Of a stretch of 64,000 nucleotides of DNA, positions 244 to 46,272 are shown one piece after another. The DNA comes from Candidatus Omnitrophota bacterium. Lineage in GTDB: Bacteria > Omnitrophota > Omnitrophia > Omnitrophales > Aquincolibacteriaceae. The stretch is taken from the NCBI GenBank assembly GCA_022709525.1, contig JAKLIQ010000001.1, positions 338,679-402,678 on the forward strand, written 5' to 3'. How positions within the stretch are numbered: the stretch's first letter is position 1; each line of letters opens with the position of its first letter. The position numbers and the translations under genes were made by a program. The notes under the pieces were generated by a model, which did not search any database, was not told the origin of the DNA, and saw nothing but the letters and a program-made list of their open reading frames with translations.

Positions 244-404
244 AAAGGGACTCGTCGCTCGGGACTAGGGACTTGTTTGGGTTCCTGGTTTTTGCGAGTC
301 CCGCACTTGATCTCTTTAAAAATTTGAAAGATTATCAAGTGCTGCACTGGTTTCTGTCAAAAATTCAATGAAAACCAGGCGAGGAACTAGTCCCGAGTCC
401 CCTT
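244..404. repeat. Palindromic repeat element of the GGGACTCG/CGAGTCCC family, composite copy. Left module 247-302, right module 378-403, AT-rich core between them.
   Basis: aaaGGGACTCGtcgctCGGGACTAGggact...gCGAGTCCC at the left and gaggaaCTAGTCCCGAGTCCCc at the right are reverse complements. The element fills the convergent fabF/lpxA intergenic region. The same modules recur at 3008, 3424, 19032, 23002, 44557 and 46181. Confidence 0.75.
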
Positions 405-1998: not shown

Positions 1999-4900
1999 AT
2001 GAATCAACGTAATCCATTCAAGACATATATTGCGGCGCTTACTGTTTTCGCTTTCTTTTTTACAAACCTCGGGATCACTCCGGACGCGTTAGCGGCGGCT
2101 TCGATGCCTACGCCTCGCAACATCTCCGGCAATCAAGCCGAAGTTTTGTTGCCCTACCAAGCCCGGCTTGATTCAAGCATCGGCTTTTCGATTCCCTCCG
2201 AACTTGGCTCCATCGAATATTTCAGGCCCGGAAAAGGCCCGGCGCTTATTCATATCCAGACCGCGCACGGGCATTACCAGGCCCAGAAACAGATCCAGCA
2301 GATCCTCCATCACCTTGATAAAAATTACGGTGTCAAAACCCTTTTCTTGGAAGGAAGCGGGTTTGAGCTGAATCCGGAGCTCATCCGTTTTTTCCCGGAC
2401 GATCATGCGCTTACTATGAAGGCCGCCGACGAGCTCACCAAACGCGCGCTTCTGAAAGGCCCTGAGCTCTTTTTGCTTGATAAGCTGTTCGAAAGCTCAC
2501 AAACAATCAAGCAAAAGACCACAGACCACAGACCGCAGACGACAGCTAAAGATTTTGGGCTCCAGTCTCCAGTCTCCAGTCTCCAGTCTTCCGAAGGCGT
2601 TCGCGCCTTCGGAATTGAGGAGCTTAAATCTTACCGCGAGAACGGCGTCGATTTTGTCAATGTCCTCGAAGCCAAACAAAAAACGCAGAATTTTCTCGCC
2701 GATATGGACATGGGGATCGAGCGTCTTTCCAGCCATTATCTTAATAAAGACCTCCGCGGTTTTCTCAAGCGCCTTGAGGCTTTTGAAAAAAATCAGATCC
2801 CGTTCGAGGATTGGCTTACCTATTTAAAAGGGGAGGCCGCCAAGCGCCTTGAGATGGACCTTTCGCAGGCCCAATATCAGATCGATTGGCCGATGATGGT
2901 CCGAATTTTCAAGATCCGCGAACTTACTTCTAAGCTGGACCGCCAGAAATTTTCAAAGGAGCGTGATGAGTTTTTAAAAACTATCAGGAAATATCTCTCC
3001 AAAAATTGGGACTCGCACCTCGGGACTCGTTCCTCGACGAGAAACCAAAACGAGTCCCTAGTCCCTAGTCCCGAGTCCCTTTATGGAGAAATCGAACGAT
3101 TACTTCGATCGGAGCAGGCAAGCGTCCAGCTTCCGGACCCTGAAACGAGTTTGCTGTTCGAAGACATGGTCCGCCAGCTTCCGGAAGATTTTGATTATGA
3201 AAAGTATCCCAACGTGCGTTATTTCATCGGCATGCTTCTTTTGCAAAGCGAACTAAAGGCGCAGATGCTCATGGAAGAAATGGATCGGTTGGTCGAAAAG
3301 ATCTCCGTCAAATTGGCCGACGCCCCGGAAGAGCAAAAACTTCTTGTCCTCTTAAAAGATTACCGCCTTCTCCAAAAACTTTTCGCGCTGGAACTTTTAC
3401 CGAAGGATTATGAAGCTATTATCGGGACTCGGGACTTGCACCTCGGGACTCGACTGAAACCCTCCAATATATGTGCTCGATTCAATGAAATCGGAAAGTG
3501 GCAAGCCGGAAACGAAAAAACGAGGAACTCAAACGAGCCCCTAGTCCCGAGTGACGAGTCCCGCGTGCGCCGGGTTGAATTTAAACATGTTGAAGATTTG
3601 GATGTATTATTCAATAAGGCGCTCGCATTCTACGCCGGCGTGAAGGAACGCGACCTCAAGATGGAGCAGCGGATCGAAGAGCGGCTCAAGGAAACGGGCG
3701 CTCAAAAAGCCGTGGTCATCACCGGCGGCTTTCATTCCCAGCCCTTTCGCGATCATTTTACGAACAAGGATTTTTCCTACGCTCTCATTTCTCCCAAATT
3801 GACCACGACTGACACAAAAGGCCGCGAAGAATATATCCAGAATACTTTACGTTTTACGCTTAAGTCGACAAAAGAGTCCGTTTATCCGGCAGATCCGGAG
3901 GTGCTCAGGCCTGAAAACCGCTATGGCTTGGATCAGGCCGCCATGCGTGCCGAGATCCGCCAAATCATCTCAGAAGTAGCCGGCCAACCTCAAACCAAAG
4001 ACCTGGAAGCCGCGCGAAAGCTTGTCGATAAAGCTTTTCAACAGGCGGCAAAAGAGGCAGGACTTCTTTACGATCCCCAAGTCGATGAAGCCGAGGCTCG
4101 TGACTTGGCCCAATGGCTTACCGTGACACCTAAAAATATTCCCTTCAGCCAGATCCTTCAGGACGTCCGCGATTGGTTTGCCGGCGCCGAAAGAAAACAA
4201 AAGTTAGAAAGCATTTCTGTTCCTACCCTTGATGTTCTTGCCACAGCCATTCCACAGGATGCCGGAAAAGGATCTGAAGCGGTTTCCCAATCGCGTGCGA
4301 CAGATCTTCAAAAAGAGCCGGAAGGGATGACCGCGCTCGACATCCTCAAAGGGATCGGCTTTGTTTTAGGCGTCAATGTCGCTTATCTAGGCGTCATTCT
4401 GATCATCGCGGCGATCCCCACCGTCATTGTGCTTACTTCAGCGGTGGCGCTTGGGGGTTATTTGGCCTACCAGGCCTTTCTTTGGGCCCAAGAAACATAC
4501 CAGAAGATCAGCGAAGGTATCCGTTCGCTTCCCCAAAATATAGCGGATAAAAAACAATCCCTGTCCCTAATGCTCAAAACGTGGAGTCAAATTTTCAAAC
4601 ATTTTTCCGCCGAGACGTCCGGCAAGTTCAATTACGACGAATTTGCGGAGCAGGTCCATAAAGAAAAGATCCGGATCGGACAACGGATCACGGTCTATCC
4701 CAAAAAAGGCGATCTGATCTCCGGCCGTTTCCATTATCTCAATAACGCGACCGGTTACTTATCCGTCTCGTCCGTTTCGACCGCGTCAGAACAGATTATC
4801 TCCCAGATCCACAAGGATGATATCGCGTTTATTGATGTCCCTCGCGATGTTACTCGCTCGGAAGCGAGAGTAGCCATAATGGTCATTAATGATGCTGTCT

Positions 4901-10900: not shown

Positions 10901-13900
10901 AATTTGAGAGGATTTTGGGATTTATGGCAACCAATACCGTGGCCCATGTTGGTATTGGGAATTGGAGAAATCTTGGTCAGGCAGGGGGAGGATTTGTCAC
11001 CGTCCAAGGACAGCCTGATATTGTTGATACAGCCATTCCAAAAAAAGAAAATGAAAAAAACGGATTTTTAGCTGATCGAGATATTAATCTGTTTTCAACT
11101 TTTATTAATGTTCTGAATTATGCAACCCTTCTTTACGCGATCTCCGACAATATTACAATTGAAGACCAACCGCTTATCTCATGGGATGAGGTGCAGTCTG
11201 TTTCAAGGATGGAAGAAAGTTCAATGACGATTTTGAAACAGCGTTTGGCAAAACTCAGCATTGAACAAGAGCAGGAGATCGTTCGTAATTTTATGAATCT
11301 TTTGCCTTCGGAATATGTTTTAAAGTCGGAAGATGTTCCGAAAGAGGAAGGTTCGAAAGAGTTTGTAAAGAAAGAATTTATACAATGGGAACAAATTAGC
11401 GGAATGTGGCATGGCGCAATTGAAAAAAGAATAAAGGAACGACATGCTCAAGAGAGAGTCCCCGTGCAATGGTCTAAGCCTCTAAGCTATGCAAATGCAG
11501 ATATAAGCTTAAGAGAATTTTCCATTCTTACTCAGCGAGGCGTTCAGGAGTCCGTTCCGTTATTTGCAGAGGTAAAGTCTGTTGTGGATTTATATGCTTT
11601 TCAGCCGCTTGTGCAGAAAGGAATAAAAATTTTAGCGGATAAAGATGTTTTAAGTTCAGAAGTCGGGCAGGATGCCGTGCGGCCTTCCAAGGGTATGGTT
11701 TTAAGAATCAATTCCGAGACTGCCGCGCGACAGCAACTTGCTTCTTTTGCCGCTAAGGGGGCACAGGTCTATTTGGGAAAAAATTTGGTATTTGAAAAAG
11801 GAGCTGAGCTCATTATTACCATCAAGGATTTTCATCGAGGCGTTAGCCTTAAAATAGGCGATAACGCGACATTTTATGGTGACGTTTTATTGCATCTTAA
11901 AGGAGGAGCAGTTGTTGATATTGATAGCGGCGCACAGGTTGGCAGCCCCCTTCTTTCCAGATTAAGATTAACGCTCGAAGATGGCTATTGGCTTCACATT
12001 GAAAGAGAAGCCATGCAAAAAATACTAGAAATGCTGGAACAGAAAGACAAAAAGATTGGAACTGAAAAAGTTGTTGAGCAATACAAAGATTTTGTAACCA
12101 CTAATTTTTTAAGCAAGGCTCGATTTGTTCGACTTCTCGTTGATGCTCTTGCAAATAGTAAAGAGATTAATGAGAATCTGAGAAAAAATGCTGAAGAGGC
12201 AGCTAGGGGAATTGATGTATTTGAAAAAAGGTCGGAACCAAATGCTCGCGCGGAAATGCGGACGCAGCAGGAAGAAGTGCCGGCGGAAGTGGCGCGCCTG
12301 ATCGATGGCGAGATCGTGCCGAAACTGGAGAGGCAGGCGGGCATTATCGAAAGTTTCAAGTCCGGAGAAACCAGTATTGCGAACCTGGCGGTAACCTTTG
12401 ATAAATCGCGTTTACGCGGGATAGCGGGTGAAGTCTATCAAAAGATCTCCAATGCCATTCCGCAGGGGAGCAGCGTTTCAGCCCAAAGTCTTTTTAGTTT
12501 CTTCTATTCGGCCCGTTCAGAAGACGAACATCATCTCGCGGCGCTTTATGCGGCCAATTTAGCCGAAGATAACGACCGTTTGGAGGTCCTTAATTCCGAA
12601 AGGCGGATCCTCTCCCAGGAGCCCATCAATTCAACGATCCTTGCGAGAAAAGAATTCGCCGAAGCTTACGCCAAAAAACTTTTCCTTCTCTTCTCCCACA
12701 ACGCCAAGGGGGAAAGCATTGCGTCAGCCATATACCGCGTTCTTCAGCGCTACGAAATGATAACCCCCGTGAACGTAAGCGCTCGGGACGTTGAGATCGT
12801 CGTTTTAGCTAACCTTCTTCGAAATATGCTTACACCCCAGCAGCTTGAAAAGGTAGCCTGGGACACCCTTATGGAAGAAGCGAGCGCTCTTTTCAACGAG
12901 ATCCAGCGGGTCACTTTCAATTGGAGCGATCTTTCGGCCGAAGCCAAACGCTCGGAAGTCCGGGATACGATTTATGAAGAGGTAAATGACCGGGCGAAAG
13001 AGATCGTAAATATTATTCGTGGGATCGAACAAAATGGGGAACTTAAATCTGTTGAACCCATCCAGCAACACGTGATGGCGCTGCAATCACTTTTTTTAAA
13101 CGGCAACCGGGGTGAGGATATAGCCCGGCAGTTGAGGTCGAAAGCCCCAGCCCTTTCCATCGGCGGTCTTGAACAGATCGCAGGTTATATGACCGCAGCC
13201 TGGCTTTTAGCCAGTTTTTTTGATGAACAGCTTAGAGTATGGCAAGGAAATGAGGACGTAAGACGTGATTGGCATTCCGTTTCCACTCGCGAAGTTCCCG
13301 ATCTTATAAAAGGCATCAACTACGCGTTTGTTCACGGGAAGGTTTTTAAGACTTTTGATTGGATGTCCTCCTTAAATGCAGATAGTTATGACCATGATAA
13401 AGCCATGAAATTTTTCTATAACGCGTTAGTGGAATGGGGGATCGTTGCGCCTTTTTCTTTCCAAAACGCGAAAGGCATTGTCAGGCCTGAATCCATTGTT
13501 TTTTCTCTTTTAAGTTCGGATCATATTTCCACTTTTTCTCAGAAAAAGTTCTTTGAAGAATTAAACGGGCGCTTGGCCAGTCCGTACTTTCCGTTAAAGG
13601 ATTCTGTCAAATTGTGGGTACGCACGCCTCGACCGGAAGCGCCTTACGCTTTTGAAGTGTTGACTCTAAAGACGTCATCTTTTGTTGATTCTGGAACCGA
13701 AATATCGCCGGTGAAATTTTTTGAACAAGCTATCAGTCAGTTGAAGACCAAGCAAATTAATGATATTAAAGACCTCAATGAATTGCTTGCTCGCGTGATG
13801 CGTGTTGGGATTGTCTATGCCGGCCGGTCGGAATTGAGGGAATCAGCAATTTCAAAACAGACCACAGATCAAAAATCACAGACTGTAGCTCAACTTTCAA

Positions 13901-14721
13901 GATTTGGCTCTCAATCCTCGGAATGGGTGGGAGGAGAAGCGGCTTCGATGCTTCCTAAAATCCAGAATTCCCTTTATCCAAGTTATAGTGAAGTTCAAAC
14001 GGACGTTATGGTGATCCGTCAGCTTTATCAGGAAGAATATCTTTATAAAAAAATTGTCAGATATTTTCGCTCCGGCATCATTCCGTTAAAACTTTGGAGC
14101 GCCCTCCGGAAGGCGGGCGCGCTTGGCAGGACCGTGATCGAACGCATCGCCGGTATTTCTTTCGCGGATGCAGCGAAAACCGGATCGGCCGTTCACGAAG
14201 CTACTTTGGCCGATCTGCCAAAGTCGTTCAAAGAATATCATAGGTTCAACCTGGCTCAAGGCGTCTTGCTTTCGATGGATAAGGGAAAGATCGCCGATGG
14301 CTTGATTTTCAGCCGGAAGTTCGCTTTTAGTCGCGGCGCAATCGCGGCAGCTCGTACGGTCTTAGGCGATGTCCCCTTGGCGATGGTGAAGGCCGGTATG
14401 AGCGCGAGGGAAATCCAATTTGTCGAAAATCTTAACCTTCAGTTTAAAAAAGCCGGGCGCAAACAGGCCGAAATTTTTCTCGCTGAGACACCCGAACAAG
14501 CATTGCAGTATCTGCGGGCGAACAAAGCAACCCGTCTGAGGGCGCTTTTTGACGAGAGCGAGGAGAACGATTCTCTGGCTATAGCCCTTAAAAACCAGCT
14601 GCCGGATATCCAATTCGTCAGTAATGCCGAGTTCCAGAGCTTCCTCGGCTACGCCGGCACCGAGATCCAGAAACTGGTCGCCAATGTCCAAGGCCAGTTC
14701 GCCATCCGTAGAGCTGCGTAA
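1999..14721 (+). CDS. Giant secreted/membrane-associated protein of unknown function (4240 aa)
   Basis: One stop-free reading frame of 12,723 nt. N-terminal signal-peptide-like segment (KTYIAALTVFAFFFTNLGITPDALAAA). Hydrophobic helix clusters near aa 800-850 and 1535-1600. Pro/Tyr-rich segment with an internal lipobox-like LAAGC near aa 1840-1890. Recurrent RSExR motif. Coiled-coil-like stretches. No recognisable catalytic motif. In-frame palindromic repeat insertions at 2521-2612, 3008-3079 and 3424-3562. Confidence 0.85.
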   Translation: MNQRNPFKTYIAALTVFAFFFTNLGITPDALAAASMPTPRNISGNQAEVLLPYQARLDSSIGFSIPSELGSIEYFRPGKGPALIHIQTAHGHYQAQKQIQQILHHLDKNYGVKTLFLEGSGFELNPELIRFFPDDHALTMKAADELTKRALLKGPELFLLDKLFESSQTIKQKTTDHRPQTTAKDFGLQSPVSSLQSSEGVRAFGIEELKSYRENGVDFVNVLEAKQKTQNFLADMDMGIERLSSHYLNKDLRGFLKRLEAFEKNQIPFEDWLTYLKGEAAKRLEMDLSQAQYQIDWPMMVRIFKIRELTSKLDRQKFSKERDEFLKTIRKYLSKNWDSHLGTRSSTRNQNESLVPSPESLYGEIERLLRSEQASVQLPDPETSLLFEDMVRQLPEDFDYEKYPNVRYFIGMLLLQSELKAQMLMEEMDRLVEKISVKLADAPEEQKLLVLLKDYRLLQKLFALELLPKDYEAIIGTRDLHLGTRLKPSNICARFNEIGKWQAGNEKTRNSNEPLVPSDESRVRRVEFKHVEDLDVLFNKALAFYAGVKERDLKMEQRIEERLKETGAQKAVVITGGFHSQPFRDHFTNKDFSYALISPKLTTTDTKGREEYIQNTLRFTLKSTKESVYPADPEVLRPENRYGLDQAAMRAEIRQIISEVAGQPQTKDLEAARKLVDKAFQQAAKEAGLLYDPQVDEAEARDLAQWLTVTPKNIPFSQILQDVRDWFAGAERKQKLESISVPTLDVLATAIPQDAGKGSEAVSQSRATDLQKEPEGMTALDILKGIGFVLGVNVAYLGVILIIAAIPTVIVLTSAVALGGYLAYQAFLWAQETYQKISEGIRSLPQNIADKKQSLSLMLKTWSQIFKHFSAETSGKFNYDEFAEQVHKEKIRIGQRITVYPKKGDLISGRFHYLNNATGYLSVSSVSTASEQIISQIHKDDIAFIDVPRDVTRSEARVAIMVINDAVWFGMDAASKAISIDDLKAALRESDRDYISVQRDGVWHSVSKVFVYRHLRFYEKDIQKISKIKQKTFEPGKKKLIPKKIAEIFHQALAEQSDLTAKLIAAMGSAYSPKTDVLKSRRVSLTEIYKNAIAKLERELAKLESSLTSEERSAVIDRIDVHVKVAGYDGKPRGNPPHRTDYKVAFALRDKKEPRKTSSMDVINELFAGIDNHHYPDRDFLWTFSQGGRLGDVYRHVRGELASRLEWFGLLPNSLFGSDERSVYVNNVINNIEVDFTIHGFAWPSNYALNYEVFFAPRSEAREFSDVKTTQELGEFMAPVIAQVTERIKTSEPFQASNISKNLIEAGLYDPLPGDKQHAFEELGKQDTLDKTAYFMGLQMYWAIARAPDLEKAKELAGTVDAYAQSRSEARSAVNEGAMHEAARNMGYQDLKEIAVSHGENTIPNIDEFLAYLNTFETDQTQAREEWFVKWIMEFRIIEKLKQFIGEHVAKGDAKAFAKAEAAFQALQKINATGQRILAKANQTAQTIRTLQDLHAMLSEAKTAISEVKASYHLEEEAGRQESRSEMRVKRTEMIRDVLFRVGIAVPVVAIAGGFVYLAITHTAPVFLFQASLTLLITMGFIALATTWLNHLFDLVHQKFPTENRRLSTPEVWLMETFGIKLNFGRLSGLIGLMLRPLTPSVSAQDQKLKKLPDQTMGVWPSNEGKPRFENHDFSKRALPIILAGAFGATAASAQQIQITYPPMDPPYGANMTLTHTNKVAPQDVWVTAFAYWKTSLVESTAIVTTKVYDALFKTNDPSTTVYSIKPAIFSNASPVFFYGDKSETPVVSGGSLPSTETNVLPKNPSAADLLKLRTDFEREQKVKAKALEKNRSELRGKFAKSIILGIIALAAGCATAPAPYGYRPAVPYGYPYSITPSWKPPVPKRINIPKAPPMPPAGINIRPRSEIRTTVRIEVPEDVPPEKTIARFVLDQLGKPLNESGDQVTLVDILQGKAILTIFTNTGEFIFDPRAQSLSAFNQPAGEALAIEFQFRSELRNFHVQEVRLDVGDLNKLSVEEREEAIAKKIKDGKTRIYLGTSIENDRLQWDMDRDISAAHGLVRDARVLAVSLQKIGIPVHMEFLKLPLEVRNDGTWSFIEYDYYFAVGEDHAEILKRFILRLRALANASTLGDQGYVRLPEGILTDEIERFTEEYIGRSETRALPSVEKLIGKIEAALKAFAILSKTIDKGVINMWAKGLYKNMEPWVREAYDDLVKLIGEKAQKSDEQGVRDAINQVEKIFLAERRFLKAIFDSVPEEEVWLFTEFIALIWDEHSDISNALADASMKFEKNNSAFSLELSNKADDTRPSLSDAQDPDDGPAPASAEPSTAPRSEMRSLLVVQMPTTMHPEFALSTFIMNAMKEHNLKRQDERGNILFEIYVNMRDGQRMLYTDFIKSKLHSSDELSAIYNIQNIEFVSTPSFQINTPKDLPEVIIALEKDAEKLNNLPMAAWKSLKDEVLSHAEIFLNIAENLAGTDLERKERQVVFLQILKGIQTMIALPFLADQEDTKAKKMAQRITNLWFLIGDELEQARLDGIKKAAEKRYGRPIDVKKLKNEMGSAHVAFDKTSNTLEVEDLPTDIWSPYPADRMVSTYLSPAILRHLLEGLSLSVDVAGDMVLPSKVGSISIQKLEVLIKEAIDKTVEDKAKKDGIGDPSKIEKLKADPVARFNALVKLENDVRKSPDEAIRVMHSQGVTTITEAVFVEFMGDFLAAMLLLKTAQNWQFKKEGFEANHVLLENIQKTLSLSQIGLEDIALRLVSLNIPLNIIEQVIQGKMNNLEKFEAQGNVIVMKGGVVEVLAAGGKAARWRSSLVPLLKNKIIEDDVAANRNDLPRALAAYWYGDFSSGGGTGISLAMDNLTHLAQRGYPVRLAYILSPHTWRTFMEATYGLLKRYNQKKAVKVPVEAIAQNTSRAWVIAGDEIKEEDRNVLGHGDVMGVVFAAIQGLKNGQVYAIPRSADGPTAQLGQKQFERILGFMATNTVAHVGIGNWRNLGQAGGGFVTVQGQPDIVDTAIPKKENEKNGFLADRDINLFSTFINVLNYATLLYAISDNITIEDQPLISWDEVQSVSRMEESSMTILKQRLAKLSIEQEQEIVRNFMNLLPSEYVLKSEDVPKEEGSKEFVKKEFIQWEQISGMWHGAIEKRIKERHAQERVPVQWSKPLSYANADISLREFSILTQRGVQESVPLFAEVKSVVDLYAFQPLVQKGIKILADKDVLSSEVGQDAVRPSKGMVLRINSETAARQQLASFAAKGAQVYLGKNLVFEKGAELIITIKDFHRGVSLKIGDNATFYGDVLLHLKGGAVVDIDSGAQVGSPLLSRLRLTLEDGYWLHIEREAMQKILEMLEQKDKKIGTEKVVEQYKDFVTTNFLSKARFVRLLVDALANSKEINENLRKNAEEAARGIDVFEKRSEPNARAEMRTQQEEVPAEVARLIDGEIVPKLERQAGIIESFKSGETSIANLAVTFDKSRLRGIAGEVYQKISNAIPQGSSVSAQSLFSFFYSARSEDEHHLAALYAANLAEDNDRLEVLNSERRILSQEPINSTILARKEFAEAYAKKLFLLFSHNAKGESIASAIYRVLQRYEMITPVNVSARDVEIVVLANLLRNMLTPQQLEKVAWDTLMEEASALFNEIQRVTFNWSDLSAEAKRSEVRDTIYEEVNDRAKEIVNIIRGIEQNGELKSVEPIQQHVMALQSLFLNGNRGEDIARQLRSKAPALSIGGLEQIAGYMTAAWLLASFFDEQLRVWQGNEDVRRDWHSVSTREVPDLIKGINYAFVHGKVFKTFDWMSSLNADSYDHDKAMKFFYNALVEWGIVAPFSFQNAKGIVRPESIVFSLLSSDHISTFSQKKFFEELNGRLASPYFPLKDSVKLWVRTPRPEAPYAFEVLTLKTSSFVDSGTEISPVKFFEQAISQLKTKQINDIKDLNELLARVMRVGIVYAGRSELRESAISKQTTDQKSQTVAQLSRFGSQSSEWVGGEAASMLPKIQNSLYPSYSEVQTDVMVIRQLYQEEYLYKKIVRYFRSGIIPLKLWSALRKAGALGRTVIERIAGISFADAAKTGSAVHEATLADLPKSFKEYHRFNLAQGVLLSMDKGKIADGLIFSRKFAFSRGAIAAARTVLGDVPLAMVKAGMSAREIQFVENLNLQFKKAGRKQAEIFLAETPEQALQYLRANKATRLRALFDESEENDSLAIALKNQLPDIQFVSNAEFQSFLGYAGTEIQKLVANVQGQFAIRRAA
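2521..2612. repeat. Heptamer tandem repeats (CAGACCA-type, then CCAGTCT x4) followed by a perfect 9-bp-arm palindrome, in frame inside the giant ORF
   Basis: ccacagaccacagaccgcagacgacagc ... ccagtctccagtctccagtctccagtct ... ccgaaggcg-ttc-gcgccttcgg. Encodes QTTDHRPQTTAKDFGLQSPVSSLQSSEGVRAFG. Homologous peptides and DNA occur at 13855-13925 and 18975-19058. Confidence 0.7.
3008..3079. repeat. GGGACTCG/CGAGTCCC nested-palindrome element inserted in frame in the giant ORF
   Basis: GGGACTCGcacctcGGGACTCGttcctcgacgagaaaccaaaaCGAGTCCCTAGTCCCTAGTCCCGAGTCCC. Same architecture as the intergenic copy at 23002-23075. Translated as GTRSSTRNQNESLVPSPES with no stop. Confidence 0.8.
3424..3562. repeat. 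GGGACTCG/CGAGTCCC element, larger copy with a 65-nt core, in frame in the giant ORF
   Basis: GGGACTCGGGACTtgcacctcGGGACTCG ... 65 nt ... cgaggaactcaaacgagcccCTAGTCCCGAGtgaCGAGTCCC. Translated as GTRDLHLGTRLKPSN...NSNEPLVPSDESRV. Confidence 0.8.
13855..13925. repeat. CAGACCA-family heptamer repeat copy, in frame near the C-terminal third of the giant ORF
   Basis: cagaccacagatcaaaaatcacagactgtagctcaactttcaagatttggctctcaatcctcg encodes QTTDQKSQTVAQLSRFGSQSS, parallel to the copies at 2521 and 18975. Confidence 0.55.
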
Positions 14722-14732
14722 CGATAAAGCAG

Positions 14733-14850
14733 TAGGTAGTAAGTAGTAGATGGTAGGTGGCAGACGGTGTGGCAAAGTCCGTTTTGCGCTTTGTTCACCA
14801 CATACTGCTTACCACATACTACCTACCAGTTTTTACTTCTCTCTTTCGAC
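14733..14850 (+). terminator. Long imperfect hairpin made of GTAG/CTAC repeats followed by a T-rich tract. Candidate terminator of the giant gene.
   Basis: gtaggtagtaagtagtagatggtaggtgg (14733-14760) is complementary to ccacatactgcttaccacatactacctac (14798-14827). Perfect 10-bp outer stem gtaggtagta/tactacctac. Downstream agtttttacttctctctttcg. Confidence 0.4.
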
Positions 14851-14908
14851 TTTCCTAGCTAGAATACCCCCAAATCTTCTAACCCTTTTCCAACTTGGGA
14901 CTTAGAGA

Positions 14909-16126: not shown

Positions 16127-16163
16127 TTCATGATATTTACGCTAAGCGCCCTTTGAGCGGTCC

Positions 16164-17147
16164 ATGAGCGATCATCATTCCGAAGTTCTAATCGATTTTC
16201 AAAATGTTTCCAAAAGGTATGGCGCGTTCCGGGCTCTTCGCGACGTTTCTTTTCAGGTCCGGGAAGGGGAGATCGTCGGATTTCTGGGCCCCAACGGCGC
16301 CGGCAAAACGACCGCTATGCGGATCCTTTCGGGATTTTTTCCTCCCACAAGCGGTCACGTCTCGATCCGAGGCGTCGATATGTCCAAGCATCCTCACAAA
16401 GCCAAGCAAGCCATTGGGTATCTTCCGGAGACGGTGAGTCTTTATCCGGACATGCGCGTGATCGAATATCTTCGATTTGTCGCAAAAGTCAAAGGCGTGC
16501 CGCCTCATGAACGATGGGGGCATATCAGGGCCAAGATGTCTTTTTGCGGGCTTCTGGAGGTCAGCCACCGCTTGATCGGAAAGCTTTCAAAAGGGTACCG
16601 CCAGCGCGTGGGGCTTGCCCAGGCGCTCATGGGCGATCCTTCCGTGTTGATCCTCGATGAGCCCACCACGGGGCTCGACCCGACCCAGATCAAAGAGATC
16701 CGCGAACTGATCCGCGCCCTGGGTCAAAACCGCGCCGTGATCCTCTCAACGCATATCCTTCCCGAAGCTTCCATGTTATGTAATCGCGTTTTAATGATCA
16801 ACCAAGGGGAGATCCTGGCGAGCGGTACGGTCCAGGAGCTTGCTTCTTGTTTGAAGAACCGGGAAGTCATTCATATCCGGATCAAGCACCGGGAAGACCG
16901 GCAACACGCGGTGGAGGCGTTGGGATCGATCCAAGGGGTCAGAGGATTGAGATCGGGAGAAGAAGCCAACGGAGAAACCTTCTTCGCTTTTGAATCCTTG
17001 CCTGACGAAGACCTGCGCCCCAAGATCACGAAACTTTTCGTGGAGCAGGGTATTTCGCTCGCCGAGATCCGGCGCGAACCTATGAACCTGGAAGAAGTTT
17101 TTCTAGGGCTTCTTGAGGAAGGGAAGCTCGGGAGGCGATTCTCGTGA
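16164..17147 (+). CDS. ABC transporter ATP-binding protein (GldA-like, ABC-2 type)
   Basis: Walker A GPNGAGKTT, signature LSKGYRQRVGLAQAL, Walker B LILDEPTTGLD. Followed by a translationally coupled permease. Confidence 0.85.
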   Translation: MSDHHSEVLIDFQNVSKRYGAFRALRDVSFQVREGEIVGFLGPNGAGKTTAMRILSGFFPPTSGHVSIRGVDMSKHPHKAKQAIGYLPETVSLYPDMRVIEYLRFVAKVKGVPPHERWGHIRAKMSFCGLLEVSHRLIGKLSKGYRQRVGLAQALMGDPSVLILDEPTTGLDPTQIKEIRELIRALGQNRAVILSTHILPEASMLCNRVLMINQGEILASGTVQELASCLKNREVIHIRIKHREDRQHAVEALGSIQGVRGLRSGEEANGETFFAFESLPDEDLRPKITKLFVEQGISLAEIRREPMNLEEVFLGLLEEGKLGRRFS

Positions 17148-17920
17148 GAAAGATATTTGCGCTCGCCCGGAAGGAATTCAGCGGCTGTTTCCACTCCTGG
17201 CTCGGCGTGCTGATGGCCGTGCTCTTTTTTCTCGTCTCCGGCATCTTTTTTGTGATCCTGGTGCTCAATTACGTCAAGATGTCGATGCATCCCGAGCAGT
17301 ACGGGCTCTCCCATTTTACGGGGATCAATCAAACGCATTTTATCTTCGGGTCTTTTTTCACCAATTTGAGCATTTTGCTGCTTTTTCTTGTGCCGATCCT
17401 CACGATGCGTTCTTTCGCCGAAGAAAAGAGGCAGGAGACGCTTGAGCTTCTTTTTACTTATCCCGTTTCGGACTTTGAGATCGTTGCCGGAAAACAGTTG
17501 GGGATCATGATCTTCTTCGGAGCGCTTCTTGCGCCGCTTTTGGGGTATTTGGCGGTGTTCCGCGGGATCGGCGGCGAATTTGACTGGGGGCCGGCATTGC
17601 TCGGTTTCGGCGGCTTTTGGCTGATCGGGACGGCTTATCTTGCGGCGGGGGTCTTTATCTCCAGTCTTACCCGGAGCCCGATCGTAAGCGCTCTCGGCAC
17701 TTTTAGCGTGCTTCTTGTTTTCTGGATCTTTGACTGGGTCAAGGATATCGCCGGCGGGCCTTGGGGGCGCGTTTTTTCGGAACTTTCGCCGCTTGCGCAT
17801 TACCGGAATTTCACGATCGGTATTCTGGATGTGCAGGACGCGGTCTATTTCGGGTTCTTTTTCTTTTACTTCGTCTTCTTAACGCTCCGCTCGATCGAAA
17901 CCAGGAACTGGAAAAGTTAA
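17144..17920 (+). CDS. ABC-2 family transporter permease (GldF-like)
   Basis: Six hydrophobic helices, 258 aa. Overlaps the ATPase stop by 4 nt and the next gene start by 1 nt (TAATG). Confidence 0.7.
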   Translation: MRKIFALARKEFSGCFHSWLGVLMAVLFFLVSGIFFVILVLNYVKMSMHPEQYGLSHFTGINQTHFIFGSFFTNLSILLLFLVPILTMRSFAEEKRQETLELLFTYPVSDFEIVAGKQLGIMIFFGALLAPLLGYLAVFRGIGGEFDWGPALLGFGGFWLIGTAYLAAGVFISSLTRSPIVSALGTFSVLLVFWIFDWVKDIAGGPWGRVFSELSPLAHYRNFTIGILDVQDAVYFGFFFFYFVFLTLRSIETRNWKS

Positions 17921-19335
17921 TGAAACAATTTTTCCTGAAATTCCAACTGCTCTTCGAGGCGGTGATCCTTTTGGCGACCCTCACGCTCGTTTACATGGTG
18001 ATCCAGCCGTTCCATGAGCGCTGGGATCTGACGCGCGAAAAGGTCTACTCGCTTCCACGGGCGACGACCGGCGTATTGCGGGACTTGAAGGACCGCAGGA
18101 TCGATCTCCTTCTTTTTTATCAGCAGGATGATCTTTCCAAGAAAGGCCTTGAGGTCTTTTTGAAAGAATGCCAGCGCCATCACCCGGAATTCCACTACGA
18201 TTTTTATGACCCGAACCGGCGGCCCCAGCTCGCCCGCAAATTCAATGTGACCGATGTCAAAACAGTGATCTTCCGCTCGGGCGGCCACGAAGAGCGCCTC
18301 GTTGCGCCAACCGAAGAGGACTTTACGAACGCTTTTCTGCGCCTTCTCCATCCCAAGGACCTCGATGTTTGTTTCGTGACGGGACACGGCGAAGTGCCGC
18401 TTGCCGAAGAAGGCACCGGAGGATATTCCCGTTTTCAGAAAACGCTTCAGGGTTATAACGCAAAGATCCATTCGATCGTGCTCACGCGGGACCACGTGCC
18501 CGATGTTTGCCAGGTGGTCGTGGTGGGCGGGCCGCGTTGGGACCTGACCGCCGAGGAATTCTCTGACCTCGACAAGGCGTTCCAGAAGGGGAAAGGCGTT
18601 TTTCTTTTGGTCGATCCTATGGACCCGGGCGCCGGCGCGGCTTTTGTCGAATTTGCCAGGCGGTACGGTGTTGCGCTGGGGCAGAACGTCATCGTCGACA
18701 AAATGAGCCGCATGGTCGGCGGTGATTTTTTAATGCCGCTTGTCAGCCAGTACCTGGAAACCCACCCGACCGGGAAAAACATGAAACAGGCGACTTTTTT
18801 TCCGCTCGTGCGTACGGTCCAACCTTCCGTGGATACAGTGGAGGGCCTTGAAGTCGCTCCTCTCGCTTTGACCGGGGACGGAAGTTGGGCCGAAACGGAT
18901 CTTCAGGCGCTCGAAGACGGCAATTCCACTTTTGATATCAAGACCGATATCGCCGGCCCTTTGCCTGTGGCGGTCGCCATACAACAGACAACAGACATCA
19001 GACCACAGACCACAGACAAAACCAGAACACAAGTCCCGAGTCCCGAGGAACGAGTCCCGCCGCAAGGAAGAATGATCATCGTCGGTGACGGTGATTTTTT
19101 AACGAACGGCTATCTGGACATTTCAGGAAATAAGGAATTCGGTTTGAACATGATCCGTTGGCTCGCCAATGACGACCGGTTTATGGACGTCAGGCGCCCG
19201 GAACTCCGCTTCAAGCCACTCCTGCTCGATGTGCCGCGCCGCACGCAGCTTATCGTGATCCTCCTGGGCGTTTACCCGCTCACTTTTTTCATTTTGGGCG
19301 GGATTTATCTTATTGTGCGGATCAGGACTTCATGA
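17920..19335 (+). CDS. GldG-family ABC-transporter auxiliary component (N- and C-terminal membrane anchors), carrying an in-frame repeat insertion
   Basis: Start MKQFFLKF is coupled to the permease stop. N-terminal helix AVILLATLTLVYMVI and C-terminal helix LIVILLGVYPLTFFILGGIYLIV. This architecture and the operon context are typical of GldG. The ORF-track start at 17761 overlaps the permease and is rejected. Confidence 0.65.
   Translation: MKQFFLKFQLLFEAVILLATLTLVYMVIQPFHERWDLTREKVYSLPRATTGVLRDLKDRRIDLLLFYQQDDLSKKGLEVFLKECQRHHPEFHYDFYDPNRRPQLARKFNVTDVKTVIFRSGGHEERLVAPTEEDFTNAFLRLLHPKDLDVCFVTGHGEVPLAEEGTGGYSRFQKTLQGYNAKIHSIVLTRDHVPDVCQVVVVGGPRWDLTAEEFSDLDKAFQKGKGVFLLVDPMDPGAGAAFVEFARRYGVALGQNVIVDKMSRMVGGDFLMPLVSQYLETHPTGKNMKQATFFPLVRTVQPSVDTVEGLEVAPLALTGDGSWAETDLQALEDGNSTFDIKTDIAGPLPVAVAIQQTTDIRPQTTDKTRTQVPSPEERVPPQGRMIIVGDGDFLTNGYLDISGNKEFGLNMIRWLANDDRFMDVRRPELRFKPLLLDVPRRTQLIVILLGVYPLTFFILGGIYLIVRIRTS
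18975..19058. repeat. CAGACMA heptamer run plus half of the GGGACTCG/CGAGTCCC element, inserted in frame in the gldG-like gene
   Basis: caacagacaacagacatcagaccacagaccacagac...caAGTCCCGAGTCCCGAGgaaCGAGTCCCg. Translated QQTTDIRPQTTDKTRTQVPSPEERVPP. Confidence 0.8.
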
Positions 19336-20327
19336 AGCTCATTCGGACTTTTGTTTTCATCCTTCTTTTCGCCGCTGTCGCCGCGATCTACGTTTATCAG
19401 GCGCGCCTCGCAAAGCAAATTTTAACGAACGCTCCCGATGAAGTGAACCGTGACGTGGTACTGACGCCGGAGGATTCCGTTGAGGGGATCGAACTCAAGG
19501 ACCATTCCCAGAAGACGCAGGTCACGCTTCGGAAAAACAAAGGGGGATGGGAACTCGAAAGACCCGTTCGTTATCCCGCCGAGAACGGGATCGTCGAAGG
19601 GTTCGCGATCGCCGCAAAGATGGCTTCCAAGCAGCCCCGCCTTCAGGCCGAAAAGGATTGGGAGGAATATGGCCTCGCGGATCCGGAGTTTGAGGTCATC
19701 TTCAGCGTTCAGGGGAAAAAGGACGCCACGCTTTTGGTCGGGACCCAGGCGCCGGTGGGCAAGGCGGTCTTTGCCAGGTGGAAGGAAGAGCGCGGGTATT
19801 TTCTCTTGCCGCCGGAAATGAAAGCCATGTTCCGCCAAAGCGTTTACGGTCTTCGGGAGAAACGCGTTTTCCGCCTTCCGCCCGAGACCCTCCGTAAAGT
19901 TTACATTGAAATGGGAGAGCGCGCCTATCAGTGGAAGGAAGACGCGGGCGAATGGCATTGGTTCGAGCCAGTCTCAGAATTCGGCCAGAAAATGCCGCTC
20001 GAGAAAATGAACCGGGTCCTGGCCGCCCTTCAAAATCTCCATATCAGAGAATTCCGGGACAATAACAAACAGTCCAAGGCCGAGCTCGGTTTTTTCATGA
20101 TCCATGACCGCATCGAACTGGACGCTGAAGGCGGCGAAAAGGAGCGATTCTATTTTGGCAACGAGATTCCGGATGAGAACGCTTATTACGGGCTCCGGGA
20201 GGGCGAAGAAACCGTCTTTTTAGTCGACCGTCAGAAAGTGATCGAAATTTTCGATCTTTTGCGAGCTCTTCAAAGAGATCAGGGCATTCCTTTAGCTGAA
20301 AAACAGCCGCCTTCCGAAACGCCCTGA
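19332..20327 (+). CDS. DUF4340-like periplasmic protein, commonly encoded downstream of GldG-family proteins
   Basis: N-terminal anchor MKLIRTFVFILLFAAVAAIYVY. 331 aa. Translationally coupled to the gldG-like gene. No catalytic motif. Confidence 0.45.
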   Translation: MKLIRTFVFILLFAAVAAIYVYQARLAKQILTNAPDEVNRDVVLTPEDSVEGIELKDHSQKTQVTLRKNKGGWELERPVRYPAENGIVEGFAIAAKMASKQPRLQAEKDWEEYGLADPEFEVIFSVQGKKDATLLVGTQAPVGKAVFARWKEERGYFLLPPEMKAMFRQSVYGLREKRVFRLPPETLRKVYIEMGERAYQWKEDAGEWHWFEPVSEFGQKMPLEKMNRVLAALQNLHIREFRDNNKQSKAELGFFMIHDRIELDAEGGEKERFYFGNEIPDENAYYGLREGEETVFLVDRQKVIEIFDLLRALQRDQGIPLAEKQPPSETP

Positions 20328-20335
20328 ACTGCTCC

Positions 20336-21037
20336 ATGACCGTTATTCCCCGCCTTAGAGATCTAAAAGATTCCATCCGCAGAGCTTCCGTTGAAAACGG
20401 ACGCGATCCCGGGAAGATCCGCCTTGTGCTTGTGACGAAAACCACGCCGCCCGAAAAGATCGAGGAGGCTTATGAAACGGGAGAAAGGGATTTCGGGGAG
20501 AACCGGGTCCAGGAGTGGCTCGAAAAAAAAGAGCGCCTTCCGCGGGATATCCGTTGGCACTTGATCGGTCATCTCCAGACAAATAAGGTGAAACAAGTGG
20601 TCGGGGAGATCTTTCTGATCCATTCGCTTGACCGTTTAGAGCTCGCTGACGCCATTGAAAGAACGGCCAAAAGTAAGGGGATCAATGAGGTTCCATGCTT
20701 GGTCCAGGTGAATATGTCGGGAGAAGAAAGTAAATTCGGTTTGGCCCCGGAGGCGGTTGAGGGTTTTATCGAACAAATGTCGTTAAGGCCTTCGATCAAG
20801 CTCCTCGGGCTCATGACCATCGGTCCTTTGACCGAAGACCAGGGCCGTATCCGGGAATGCTTCCGTAAGAGCCGTGAGCTCCTTGAGCGATTGAAGCAAG
20901 AATTCCCTCAGTATGGGTGGGACATCCTTTCCATGGGTATGTCGGGCGATTATAGAATAGCTATTGAAGAAGGGGCAAATATGCTTAGAATTGGCTCTTT
21001 AGTCTTTCCGAGAGGCGGAAAAAATGAACCTGCTTAG
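20336..21037 (+). CDS. yggS: YggS-family pyridoxal-phosphate homeostasis protein
   Basis: RLVLVTKTTPPEKIEEAYETGERDFGENRVQE...HLIGHLQTNKVK. 233 aa; alanine-racemase-N-like fold. Confidence 0.8.
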   Translation: MTVIPRLRDLKDSIRRASVENGRDPGKIRLVLVTKTTPPEKIEEAYETGERDFGENRVQEWLEKKERLPRDIRWHLIGHLQTNKVKQVVGEIFLIHSLDRLELADAIERTAKSKGINEVPCLVQVNMSGEESKFGLAPEAVEGFIEQMSLRPSIKLLGLMTIGPLTEDQGRIRECFRKSRELLERLKQEFPQYGWDILSMGMSGDYRIAIEEGANMLRIGSLVFPRGGKNEPA

Positions 21038-21839
21038 GAATAAAAAGATCGGACTCATCGGGGTCGGGAACATGGGCGCTTCTATACTCAGGGGGGTTTT
21101 GAAACGCAAGATCGCAACTCCTTCCTCCGTATGGGTTTATGATAAGATCAAAAGCAAAGCCGGGCATTTTGCCCGCTCTTATCGTGTCAGATGGGCGGCT
21201 TCCGCCCGGGAACTGCTTCAAAAAACGGATATTGTCATAGTGGCCGTGAAGCCGCAGGACTTCCCGGTTTTTGCCGCTGAAAACAGTTCTTATGTTCATC
21301 CCGGCCACCAAGTGATCTCGATCCTTGCGGGCATGACGACCGAAAAGATCGGGAAGATGCTCCGGGGTAATAAAAATGTTGTGAGAGCCATGCCCAATCT
21401 CGGCGCGAAAGCGGGCCAGTCCATGACCGCGATCTGCGGCAAAAGTAAAAAAGCGCTTTCGCTCGCTTCGGCGCTTTTTTCCGGATGCGGCGAGGTCGTG
21501 ATATTGCCGGAAAAAAGGATGGATCTCGTGACGGCCGTAAGCGGCAGTGGTCCCGCCTATTTTTTTCATCTGATGGAGCTTTTAGCGGACTTTGGCGTCC
21601 GGCAAGGCTTGTCGCCGAAAACCGCGCAAACGCTCGCGGTCCAAACGGCCTTGGGCGCCGCTTTGGTGGCAAAACATTCCAAAGCTTCCTGCGGCGAGTT
21701 GAGACAAATGGTTACCTCCAAGAAAGGGACCACGGACGCCGCCCTAAAGGCGCTCCGCCGCGGAAAATTCAAAAAAACTTTTTGCCGCGCGCTAGCCGCC
21801 GCTGTCGCAAGAAGCCGTGAACTTCGGAGGAACGCCTGA
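21024..21839 (+). CDS. proC: Pyrroline-5-carboxylate reductase
   Basis: N-terminal Rossmann motif KIGLIGVGNMGASIL and the ProC dimerisation region (SGSGPAYFFHLMELLADFGV). Confidence 0.85.
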   Translation: MNLLRNKKIGLIGVGNMGASILRGVLKRKIATPSSVWVYDKIKSKAGHFARSYRVRWAASARELLQKTDIVIVAVKPQDFPVFAAENSSYVHPGHQVISILAGMTTEKIGKMLRGNKNVVRAMPNLGAKAGQSMTAICGKSKKALSLASALFSGCGEVVILPEKRMDLVTAVSGSGPAYFFHLMELLADFGVRQGLSPKTAQTLAVQTALGAALVAKHSKASCGELRQMVTSKKGTTDAALKALRRGKFKKTFCRALAAAVARSRELRRNA

Positions 21840-22135
21840 TGTTTGTTTTTGGGGTTATCTTTAAAGGTTTGGCGATGCTCGTGAACGGAATTTGCACCAT
21901 CCTTTATTGGCTGCTTTTTGCCCGGATCATTGTTTCGTGGTTTCCGGTCGACCCTTTTTCCGGGCCGATGCGATTCCTGACACAGGTCACGGACCCGATC
22001 CTGGAGCCCTTGCGCCGGCTGCCGCTGCGGATCGGTATGTTGGATTTTTCGCCGCTCGTGGCTTTTTTCATGATCTATGTTACCAATCAAGTGCTTGTGA
22101 CGGTCCTTCTAAGGATCGCTTATCAATTTCAATAG
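21839..22135 (+). CDS. yggT: YggT-family membrane protein
   Basis: 98 aa, two helices, motif ARIIVSWFPVDPFSGPMRFLTQVTDPIL. Canonical yggS-proC-yggT neighbourhood. Confidence 0.75.
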   Translation: MFVFGVIFKGLAMLVNGICTILYWLLFARIIVSWFPVDPFSGPMRFLTQVTDPILEPLRRLPLRIGMLDFSPLVAFFMIYVTNQVLVTVLLRIAYQFQ

Positions 22136-22147
22136 GAGATTTTTAGT

Positions 22148-22996: not shown

Positions 22997-23001
22997 CAAA
23001 A

Positions 23002-23082
23002 GGGACTCGGGACTAGTTCCTCGGGACTCGAAAACGAGGAACCAAACGAGTCCCTAGTCCCGAGGGGCGAGTCCCGGTTTTT
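23002..23082. repeat. GGGACTCG/CGAGTCCC nested-palindrome element, compact intergenic copy with a trailing T-run. Likely acts as terminator after the PNP gene.
   Basis: GGGACTCGGGACTAGttcctcGGGACTCGaaaacgaggaaccaaaCGAGTCCCTAGTCCCGAGgggCGAGTCCCggttttt. Confidence 0.8.
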
Positions 23083-23088
23083 AAAATT

Positions 23089-44556: not shown

Positions 44557-44620
44557 GGGACTCGTTCCTCGGGACTCGTCTCTTGTTTTAACGAGTCCCC
44601 AGTCCCAAGTCCCCGTTTTT
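44557..44620. repeat. GGGACTCG/CGAGTCCC element, intergenic copy plus T-run after the guaB3-like gene
   Basis: GGGACTCGttcctcGGGACTCGtctcttgttttaaCGAGTCCCcAGTCCCaAGTCCCcgttttt. Confidence 0.75.
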
Positions 44621-46180: not shown

Positions 46181-46272
46181 CGGGACTTGGGACCAGGGAC
46201 TCGTTTCTCGTTCTTTTTTGGTTTTTTGTAATCATTTAACGAGTCCCGAGGTACGAGCTGCGAGTCCCGAGC
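46181..46272. repeat. GGGACTCG/CGAGTCCC element, intergenic copy immediately upstream of the dnaE start
   Basis: cGGGACTtGGGACcaGGGACTCGtttctcgttcttttttggttttttgtaatcatttaaCGAGTCCCGAGgtacgagctgCGAGTCCCGAGc ends 1 nt before the dnaE ATG. Confidence 0.75.

Follow-up and report, generated by a model that had tools for sequence, protein, structure and literature searches.

Heptamer-array hairpin elements in Candidatus Omnitrophota and a probable mosaic remnant of them translated within a gldG-like gene

How does a run of seven-nucleotide repeats come to lie in the reading frame of a gldG-like gene, and why does related DNA recur in a giant open reading frame (ORF) that codes for a functionally unrelated protein? 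The locus that raises this question lies in a 64-kb stretch of one Candidatus Omnitrophota genome (hereafter, the window), and all genome-level negatives given below apply to these 64 kb. The gene codes for an auxiliary subunit of an ABC transporter and belongs to an operon with the order ABC ATPase (16164-17147), ABC-2 permease (17144-17920), gldG and a DUF4340 protein (19332-20327). Its 471-aa product is 100% identical to the database protein P0001, “Gldg family protein [Candidatus Omnitrophota bacterium]”, and the nearest 44 genomic loci are all from Omnitrophota metagenome-assembled genomes. The first-pass annotation of this DNA had reported a heptamer-repeat segment in frame inside the gene; its sequence, coordinates and translation are as described, and a match to PF09822 bears out the identity of the gene. 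The same insert is present in an independent metagenome contig (L081), and hence it is not an assembly artefact. The explanation that we favor as probable is that this segment is a translated, no-longer-folding mosaic remnant of hairpin elements built of heptamer arrays.

The loop region, which is translated in frame as IQQTTDIRPQTTDKTRTQVPSPEERVPPQG, comprises three parts (Table 1): a left array, which reads TGGTCTG on the minus strand; an A-rich spacer, AAAACCAGAACACA(A); and a right array, whose units in order are GAGTCCC, GAGTCCC, GAGGAAC and GAGTCCC, thereby constituting the 3′ arm of an element of the GGGACTC family, with minus-strand matches to GGGACTCG at 19037 and 19051. The first-pass annotation had the heptamer run directly followed by the second array; instead, a 14-nt spacer that is homologous to the loops of GGGACTC-family elements lies between them. 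Likewise, it had linked the CAGACCA runs and the GGGACTCG family as one, whereas two families are joined here and their partners elsewhere differ: GAGTCCC arrays pair with GGGACTC arrays, and CAGACCA arrays have CCAGTCT or GTGGACC arrays as partners, with G.U pairs formed on the minus strand. The left 36 nt of the insert are in register, from its first codon, with the left arms of the inserts at the same site in L082 (31/36), L003 (28/36) and L083, with alignment scores of 20-26 against these three and 5-11 against other allele types. The remaining part, spacer plus right arm, matches the loop plus right arm of the complete GGGACTC hairpin of L085, including the downstream CGCCGC (score 26), and, over 42-46 nt, the window copies E1a, E4, E3R and E2 (scores 22-28), with E5 and E6 aligning more weakly; the closest of these relatives is the minus strand of E1a, a sub-element of E1 at 247-302 (score 28). 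Judged by these alignments, the segment joins the halves of two allele types, namely a left half of the CAGACCA type with a loop and right half of the GGGACTC type. Because the halves stem from different allele types, the arms are not complementary; indeed, the window insert folds no better than its shuffles (fold z +0.7 and +0.6 on the two strands). Thus, the left arm would derive from an allele of the CAGACCA type (naturally partnered by a GTGGACC or CCAGTCT array), and the loop and right arm from a GGGACTC-type allele, with recombination between alleles within the shared A-rich loop as the most likely origin. Other mosaics are found: L003 and L005, whose flanks are 88% identical, have the loop core GAAAAGCGA in common and differ in their arms.

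A second CAGACCA+GAGTCCC combination was found neither in the window nor in 85 related loci nor in 120 metagenome contigs with CAGACCA arrays. The latter came from a metagenome scan for AGACCACAGACCACAGAC, which recovered the array in at least 120 contigs of 35-70% guanine-plus-cytosine (GC) content from many unrelated organisms, with a complementary partner array downstream in 18 of the 120; given this promiscuity, the scan says little about the present lineage. In an unrelated metagenome contig (L153; minus strand, about 3690-3870; 62% GC), CAGACCA-type and GTACCGA runs apparently lie in frame in a long ORF, and Omnitrophota may thus not be alone in having heptamer arrays in frame.

The gldG site can be followed across 115 aligned orthologues and the DNA of 35 Omnitrophota loci. 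The loop between the strand ...PVAVA[IV]E and GRM[IV]VVGDGD has about 6 residues in many GldG proteins (the “empty” forms, of 449-452 aa, e.g., P0012 with KKQAGTGA) and 10-50 residues of mutually unrelated sequence in those where it is filled. At the DNA level, empty sites span 21-33 nt (e.g., L024, L009 and L011) and filled ones 60-150 nt; relative to the former, the net insert in the window amounts to some 60-66 nt (20-22 codons). In relatives, the DNA at filled sites forms strong hairpins whose arms have a heptamer period and belong to at least five sequence families (Table 1). In the AGCGGTA type, 3 of 18 pairs have changed on both sides and are still paired, with only four sequences compared. 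In genomes with a GldG below about 72% identity (L013-L044), the flanking DNA that was sampled yielded no 7-nt arrays, and the GldG loops of these genomes are mostly short; hence, the insert is not conserved in genomes without the repeat family. The comparison proposed by the first-pass annotation accordingly comes out in its favor: the segment is missing from many orthologues, namely the 449-452-aa forms and those of every sampled genome that gave no 7-nt arrays, and unrelated sequences fill the occupied sites. The GldG loop is a permissive site with many alternative alleles across the clade.

In an AlphaFold2 model (25 orthologues; mean predicted local distance difference test score, pLDDT, 75), residues 359-380 are coil, have pLDDT <50 and are flanked by strands 349-356 and 384-388, and the insert is so predicted to be a tolerant, exposed and disordered hairpin loop between two beta-strands. 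One might ask if the segment is a low-complexity linker, rich in Thr, Gln and Pro, that was selected for its amino-acid properties. The encoded peptide is indeed hydrophilic and predicted to be disordered, and the survival of only stop-free, in-frame versions implies some filtering at the protein level. However, the periodicity is 7 nt and not 3 nt, orthologues have unrelated peptides or none, the same DNA occurs in non-coding spacers, and the arms are complementary in relatives. We thus regard the linker explanation as essentially refuted, in keeping with the earlier argument against protein-level selection.

The history of the insert is also distinct from that of the gene. On a neighbor-joining tree of GldG, built with the loop masked, the insert types are scattered, and the nearest neighbors by flank identity often carry different types. 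The gldG genes of the window and L081 (P0002) differ at 186 of 1416 positions (13.1%), and their longest difference-free run is the insert (18980-19070, 91 nt; L081 2197-2284; approximate P 5e-4), which is also free of synonymous differences. Other pairs of the same type have an insert that has diverged roughly as much as its flanks or further. Since the insert is identical across a 13% divergence of gldG, it has moved or been constrained independently of the gene, and the 91-nt chimera might reflect either a recent exchange between lineages or a constraint at the nucleotide level. More generally, the elements turn over independently of their carrier genes in this clade of Omnitrophota.

A different reading of this tract is that the chimera is a discrete mobile unit with unlike ends, comparable to a miniature inverted-repeat transposable element (MITE) or a Rickettsia palindromic element (RPE), and perhaps mobilised in trans by the protein of a cassette resembling the S23p-encoding intervening sequences (IVS) of rRNA. 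This would account for an identical tract that matches the insert to within 0-2 nt in genes that are 13% different, and it could draw on the conservation of the GGGACTC-family loop across loci and genomes. Moreover, relatives have a possible cargo-bearing version: four of them (L001, L003, L081 and L207) carry, between gldG and the ABC-2 permease gene, a gene for S23p. Inverted arrays of GGAGTTC/GAACTCC (duplex -39 to -43 kcal/mol) enclose it in the first three, and in L207 only its 3′ part was captured. However, in the window the permease stop overlaps the gldG start (17917-17923) and the cassette is absent, and neither an S23p (PF05635) homologue (by tblastn) nor a transposase or RAYT (REP-associated tyrosine transposase; PF01797) gene was found there. 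There is likewise no recognisable target-site duplication and no second copy of the combination in the sample given above, and the in-register homologues that both halves have at the gldG site elsewhere favor allelic recombination. We accordingly consider such a unit unlikely, and a link between the S23p cassettes and the cargo-less hairpins is offered as a hypothesis only. The evidence for “mobility” consists only of presence/absence, dispersal of the families and decoupling from the flanking gene. Hence, of the DNA-level mobility originally proposed, a DNA-level origin stands, by virtue of the 7-nt period, the copies in spacers, presence/absence and decoupling, while transposition goes beyond the evidence.

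Further observations were made on the S23p loci. In L001, the permease reading frame continues into the left arm of the cassette. In L081, the S23p gene is interrupted (at about 775-860) by an approximately 80-nt repeat containing TCAATTTCAACAAAGTTGAAATTGG, which recurs beside gldG in L006 (11474-11557), L008 (11480-11545), L047 (640-705) and L009 (20209-20265). A diversity-generating retroelement was also considered, as the S23p-like ORFs give a weak match to bAvd, but neither a reverse transcriptase nor a template/variable repeat came to light, and the sites vary by replacement of repeats rather than by adenine mutagenesis.

The wider window is rich in such repeats. GGGACTCG occurs 22 times where 2.7 copies are expected; for CAGACCACAGAC, allowing 2 mismatches at most, the count is 16 and the expectation 1.6. 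Six period-7 arrays are present, versus 0.2 in shuffles, and periods 5, 6 and 8-12 yield 0-1 each. The copies of GGGACTCG are mostly inverted pairs that form strong hairpins, with arms of 7-nt units around an A-rich loop; in the window, the GGGACTC-family hairpins have fold z from -2.9 to -7.8. The family shares a conserved loop between loci and between genomes, with the loop motif AAACGAGGAACYNAAACGAG occurring three times in the window (0.08 expected) and also in L007 and L085. The non-coding share of the window is only about 9.5% and holds 6 of the 11 elements. E1, E4, E5, E6 and a hairpin of another heptamer family at 14727-14828 (also recovered by Tandem Repeats Finder and as an inverted repeat) are convergent inverted pairs in short spacers after stop codons. 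These intergenic copies nearly fill short same-direction spacers, and three of them (E4, E5 and 14727-14828) are followed by TTTTT. In the spacer orthologous to that of E4, the GGGACTC family is also found in L005, and a GTACGGA-type hairpin stands in its place in L009.

Table 1. Heptamer-array features of the window, and related inserts and cassettes in other Omnitrophota loci
Feature	Coordinates or locus	Strand	Basis, fold or context
E1, composite GGGACTC-family element	247..401	.	Just past 3′ end of lpxA (410-1405, minus strand); fold z -6.0 to -6.6
Site A: CAGACCA array 2516-2545, loop, CCAGTCT array 2560-2589, in frame	2512..2593	+	Tandem Repeats Finder
E2, complete GGGACTC-family hairpin HLGTRSSTRNQNESLVPSPES	3008..3079	+	In frame in giant ORF; dG -29 to -35, z -4.2 to -4.4
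E3, GGGACTC-family arms 3422-3452 and 3515-3566	3422..3566	+	In frame in giant ORF; fold z -2.9 to -3.5
Site B, decayed site-A-type copy CAGACCACAGAT...AGCTCAAC...TTTGGCTCTCAATCC, in frame	13855..13925	+	Alignment to site A
GTAGGTA/TACCTAC hairpin (other heptamer family), then TTTTT	14727..14828	+	Directly after giant ORF stop; dG -40, z -4.7
GldG-like gene (ABC-transporter auxiliary subunit), 471 aa, insert carrier	17920..19335	+	PF09822 ABC_transp_aux, E 6e-22
Hypervariable loop region, 90 nt in window	18979..19068	+	Alignment of 115 orthologues, DNA of 35 loci
Left array, 5.6 copies CAGAC[AC][AC], period 7, 87% matches	18981..19019	+	Tandem Repeats Finder
14-nt A-rich spacer AAAACCAGAACACA(A)	19017..19031	+	Local alignments to loops of GGGACTC-family elements
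Right array, AGTCCCG x4, period 7, 4.0 copies, 71% matches	19032..19059	+	Tandem Repeats Finder
E4, GGGACTC-family hairpin, then TTTTT	23002..23075	+	Fills 92-nt spacer PNP-family gene/ileS; dG -40, z -5.3
E5, GGGACTC/GGGGACT hairpin, then TTTTT	44557..44614	+	77-nt spacer IMPDH-like gene/guaA; z -4.5 to -7.8
E6, GGGACTC-family hairpin	46182..46268	+	102-nt spacer guaA/dnaE; z -3.0 to -3.3
AGCGGTA-type gldG inserts	L001, L004, L006, L206		z -3.5 to -5.6 (L004 -4.7, L206 -5.6)
CCACGGA/GTGGACC-type gldG insert	L012		z -4.5
GGGACTC-type gldG inserts	L085, L007, L010		L085 z -6.9; L007 and L010 with nested palindrome
GGCGGAT-type gldG inserts	L207, L208		z -3.5 to -4.9
CAGACCA/GTGGACC-type gldG inserts	L082, L083		Minus strand best, via G.U pairs; L082 z -3.1
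S23p cassettes	L001 9566-10000; L003 9556-10000; L081 628-1136; L207 1-165		

Several lesser repeats accompany these elements. A 14-nt unit, GCAGTTCAGAGTCC, is present in 2.1 copies at 57430-57458 between rpoD and a tRNA gene, and an AGACTNN heptamer run lies close to the 5′ end of lpxA (1283-1310). A short palindrome, GGACGGATCCGTCC(TTYGG), is nested in the heptamer hairpins of L007 (3155-3304), L010 (4365-4514) and the E3 region of L209; no significant copy of it occurs in the window.

The terminator-like appearance of the spacer copies raises the possibility that the gldG segment is itself a functional intragenic nucleic-acid structure: an attenuator or terminator, an RNase III site or an antisense G-quadruplex (G4). 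Indeed, related copies are very stable hairpins whose pairing is kept by compensatory changes, the insert has no synonymous differences from that of L081, and G-rich heptamers form G4 structures in Xanthomonas and Nostoc (PMC4692102). However, the window copy is without significant structure on either strand. A consensus scan for terminators over 14000-24000 shows no enrichment (21 sites versus 15.2 +/- 3.4 in shuffles) and, being mid-gene and without a hairpin, the gldG copy is not an intrinsic terminator. A gathering-threshold scan of the whole window against Rfam returns only RNase P RNA and one tRNA. The GGGACTC arms hold 2-3 GGG tracts and the gldG copy three, on the antisense (minus) strand; as none has four, a canonical G4 is not possible. 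A functional structure in the gldG copy therefore appears very improbable; it is probably inert at the nucleic-acid level and, in the protein, only a hydrophilic, disordered extension of a loop.

The giant ORF (1999-14721, 4240 aa), whose product has its first ~650 and last ~250 residues conserved in 78 Omnitrophota giant proteins, was the second host gene named in the first-pass annotation, which saw homologous DNA and peptides at two places in it. As regards the DNA this proves correct: the gldG insert aligns locally with 2506-2600 (z 7.4) and, less strongly, with 13846-13930 (z 3.3). These sites, A and B, align with each other at z 7.6 and, because the alignment extends beyond the arrays to the loops, they are copies of one element type. 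Site A forms a strong hairpin on the minus strand only (dG -40.1, z -5.5, versus -20.8, z -2.7 on the plus strand), in whose stem TGGTCTG pairs with AGACTGG through G.U wobbles. Site B, which lies right after the last RSELR motif and right before the conserved C-terminal domain, has no hairpin (fold z +0.3 and -0.05). The likeness of the peptides does not carry the same weight. As 3 x 7 nt make 7 codons, all frames of a heptamer array give one and the same 7-residue repeat, only circularly permuted: CAGACCA encodes QTTDHRP and GAGTCCC encodes ESRVPSP. The heptamer units that occur in coding regions contain no stop codon on the coding strand. Hence, the resemblance between GldG and the giant protein is a consequence of the DNA arrays and not of protein homology or selection on the peptide. 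Similarly, the perfect palindrome that had been noticed beside site A does exist (2591-2612; a 9-bp stem of CCGAAGGCG and CGCCTTCGG with a TTCG loop, directly after the repeat), but it is not a part of the element: the SEGVRAFG that it encodes aligns with a segment conserved in all homologues, including the repeat-free ones, which identifies it as ancestral coding sequence.

The sites in the N-terminal domain of the giant protein behave like the gldG loop. Sites A, E2 and E3 are without an insert in distant homologues, and close homologues fill them with several families, as seen in their peptides (GGRKAEG.../...SSILHP, YGVRST.../...RTPY, GTRDS.../...ESRVPSP and QTTD...). E3 presents a further complication in that its arms bracket about 62 nt encoding LKPSNICARFNEIG (LKPSxIxxRF), which is conserved in 40 of 40 aligned homologues. 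In L209 (aa 457-518 of P0131), both positions are taken by arms of another family, which pair with each other over the intervening segment (dG -70, z -2.8). This split-arm arrangement is beyond any one-piece insertion.

A further alternative is microsatellite expansion, in which replication slippage within a tolerant loop would have produced the heptamers on the spot, with neither insertion nor transfer. The E3 arms that flank conserved sequence accord with this, as does the occurrence of the CAGACCA array in very diverse metagenome contigs; further, in many bacteria heptanucleotide repeats outnumber all other classes of long simple-sequence repeat, with slippage as the proposed cause (PMC4679880, PMC4692102). 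However, the right half of the gldG insert, together with its non-repetitive spacer, aligns over 42-46 nt with five window copies and with alleles from other genomes, which implies a common origin, and this sharing of spacer and loop between copies exceeds chance. Furthermore, separate branches of the GldG tree share allele types and the insert is identical across a 13% divergence of the gene. Slippage in place, as the sole explanation, is thus improbable.

The giant ORF has another sequence regularity of its own. The motif R[SA]ExR occurs 13 times (aa 650, 953, 1258, 1367, 1524, 1832, 1905, 1993, 2156, 2331, 3417, 3651 and 3943), against 0.14 expected in shuffles, and 6-25 times in each of the homologous giant proteins of Omnitrophota; its first copy ends the conserved N-terminal domain and its last precedes the conserved C-terminal domain. 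It looks like a module-boundary or processing-site motif of multi-enzyme giant proteins. In relatives, the gene upstream of tyrS is likewise a giant ORF, of 10,496 aa in L083 (1-6451) as against 4,240 aa in the window, and in L209 (13232-13356) a second giant gene, of 5,358 aa, follows the first.

Taking these observations together, the explanation by which the gldG segment is a mosaic remnant can be framed as follows. The elements are units of 60-150 bp, consisting of two inverted 7-nt arrays around an A-rich loop, that in this clade fill short same-direction gene spacers in a terminator-like fashion, often with a T-run after them. A few permissive protein loops keep them in frame owing to their stop-free units and a total length that is a multiple of three. 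Their anatomy, the presence/absence polymorphism, the hairpins of relatives, the mosaic make-up, the position in a loop, the dispersal of the families and the separate histories of insert and gene are shown by the data above, whereas the dynamics are inferred: the arrays may grow and change by replication slippage, the complementarity of the arms could be kept by selection or by hairpin-templated (template-switch) correction, and short-patch recombination, or the element moving as one piece, would carry alleles from lineage to lineage.

Several observations weigh against this explanation. A recombination breakpoint cannot be proven, and both “parental” alleles are known only from other genomes. 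The tract of identity with L081 ends 0-2 nt from the right edge of the insert, which homologous replacement does not predict; such an edge is easier to reconcile with a chimera that moves in one piece or with a nucleotide-level constraint on a supposedly functionless sequence. The junctions at gldG, where the arms of an element are themselves inverted repeats, show no recognisable target-site duplication, and there are no terminal inverted repeats beyond those arms; the 64 kb hold no mobilising enzyme, with Pfam scans of 39 ORFs giving only housekeeping genes. Finally, the split arms of E3, which come in at least two families, suggest that stems may be maintained or rewritten in place, for which the notion of a passive remnant gives no explanation. 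One might conceive of the heptamer stems as a maintained and rewritable structural layer, in which set positions, both in spacers and within coding sequence (and at E3 even on either side of a conserved coding segment), would carry a stem whose sequence is replaced family by family while complementarity is kept, and of which the S23p/IVS-like cassettes would be the autonomous form. We hold this to be distinctly unlikely. If true, however, the stem-bearing mRNAs may be processed, for instance by RNase III, in the manner of the intervening sequences of rRNA, or bound by a factor that reads the repeats, and the conservation of the 91-nt chimera would reflect function or targeted movement.

Among known systems, the closest parallels are the RPEs, reportedly described by Ogata et al. 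in 2000, the heptameric repeat pairs of Xanthomonas and the 23S rRNA intervening sequences, each of which resembles the elements in part. The RPEs are palindromic repeats found in frame in unrelated genes (PMC10969869, section 4.2). As with the Omnitrophota elements, they form small palindromic multi-copy families that are translated in frame at protein-tolerated sites of unrelated housekeeping genes, with no associated transposase. Of the traits of RPEs, the gldG insert displays a dispersed family, in-frame placement in unrelated genes, presence/absence and a predicted tolerant loop; palindromy is seen in the family (E2, E4 and E5, z -4.2 to -7.8; L085, z -6.9) and not in the window copy of gldG. 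The RPEs differ in being about 100-150 bp long, with unique family-specific sequences that are not built of 7-nt units, as opposed to the 60-150 bp of 7-nt arrays seen here. Unlike RPE sites, those of Omnitrophota carry alternative families, and the arms may be split around conserved coding sequence. The host of RPEs is an obligate intracellular alphaproteobacterium, whereas the present one is a free-living or epibiotic member of Omnitrophota; the two are likened by description, and strict membership of the RPEs is not claimed.

The heptamers themselves recall other bacterial repeats. In Xanthomonas, GGGAATC heptamers form 70-75 convergent inverted pairs, capable of forming stem-loops, right after stop codons, and the heptamer unit of the cyanobacterial STRR sequences (short repetitive units in tandem) in Nostoc is GGGGA(C/T)T; these G-rich repeats are the ones that form G4 structures (PMC4692102). 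The window unit, GGGACT[CAT] or (in E5) GGGGACT, almost equals that of Nostoc, and the excess of period 7 and the convergent inverted pairs beside ORF ends are as in Xanthomonas. The published heptamers of these organisms are described as under-represented in coding regions, prefer four units and form G-quadruplexes; in contrast, the Omnitrophota arms have 2-3 G-tracts, several unrelated heptamers coexist, and there is in-frame translation. Vioque is said to have reported in 1997 that STRR arrays lie within a functional gene, that of RNase P RNA. The RNase P RNA of the window (class A, 58061-58454, 184.8 bits) has unusual length changes relative to the Rfam model: its first hairpin holds 21 inserted nt, 42 nt are inserted at a place where the model counts 5, and a single nt stands for 43 positions of the model. 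None of these changes is obviously built of heptamers.

The IVS in the 23S rRNA of Coxiella and Leptospira has been described as a “selfish element” whose 28-bp terminal stem encloses S23p (PMC4990558). The cassettes in the relatives of the window resemble it in having an S23p gene between complementary ends of about 30-40 nt; unlike the IVS, they are located between protein-coding genes and not in a helix of 23S rRNA, and their ends are heptamer arrays. Repetitive extragenic palindromic (REP) sequences and bacterial interspersed mosaic elements (BIME) with RAYT, and terminator-like MITEs (e.g., SPRITE), are likewise short, dispersed, spacer-filling hairpins that are often found at the 3′ ends of genes; REPs are characteristically extragenic, whereas the Omnitrophota elements are also in coding sequence, and no conserved REP-type head motif was found in the window. 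Heptamer hairpins were not described for Omnitrophota in the literature of this phylum that we searched, in which a 2026 genome preprint discusses only repeats of protein domains. Across the comparison sources and this literature, in-frame heptamer hairpins, coexisting unit families, family turnover at fixed protein loops, split arms and mosaic alleles are not described.

Thus, in a little-studied phylum that is known almost only from metagenomes, hairpin repeats of 7-nt units have been written into coding genes as well as spacers, where they create hypervariable, lineage-independent loop alleles in otherwise conserved proteins. Variation in loop length and low complexity in Omnitrophota proteins, including the N-terminal domain of the giant proteins, can accordingly be due to element insertions, and these call for masking when proteins are aligned, placed in phylogenies or submitted to structure prediction. 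In assembly and gene calling, too, the arrays are a likely source of trouble. The gldG locus offers a natural series of alleles (empty, hairpin and mosaic) in which one might study how the arms stay complementary and whether the elements spread by recombination or by an enzyme. Further, it may link the cargo-less hairpin repeats to the long-puzzling S23p intervening-sequence elements.

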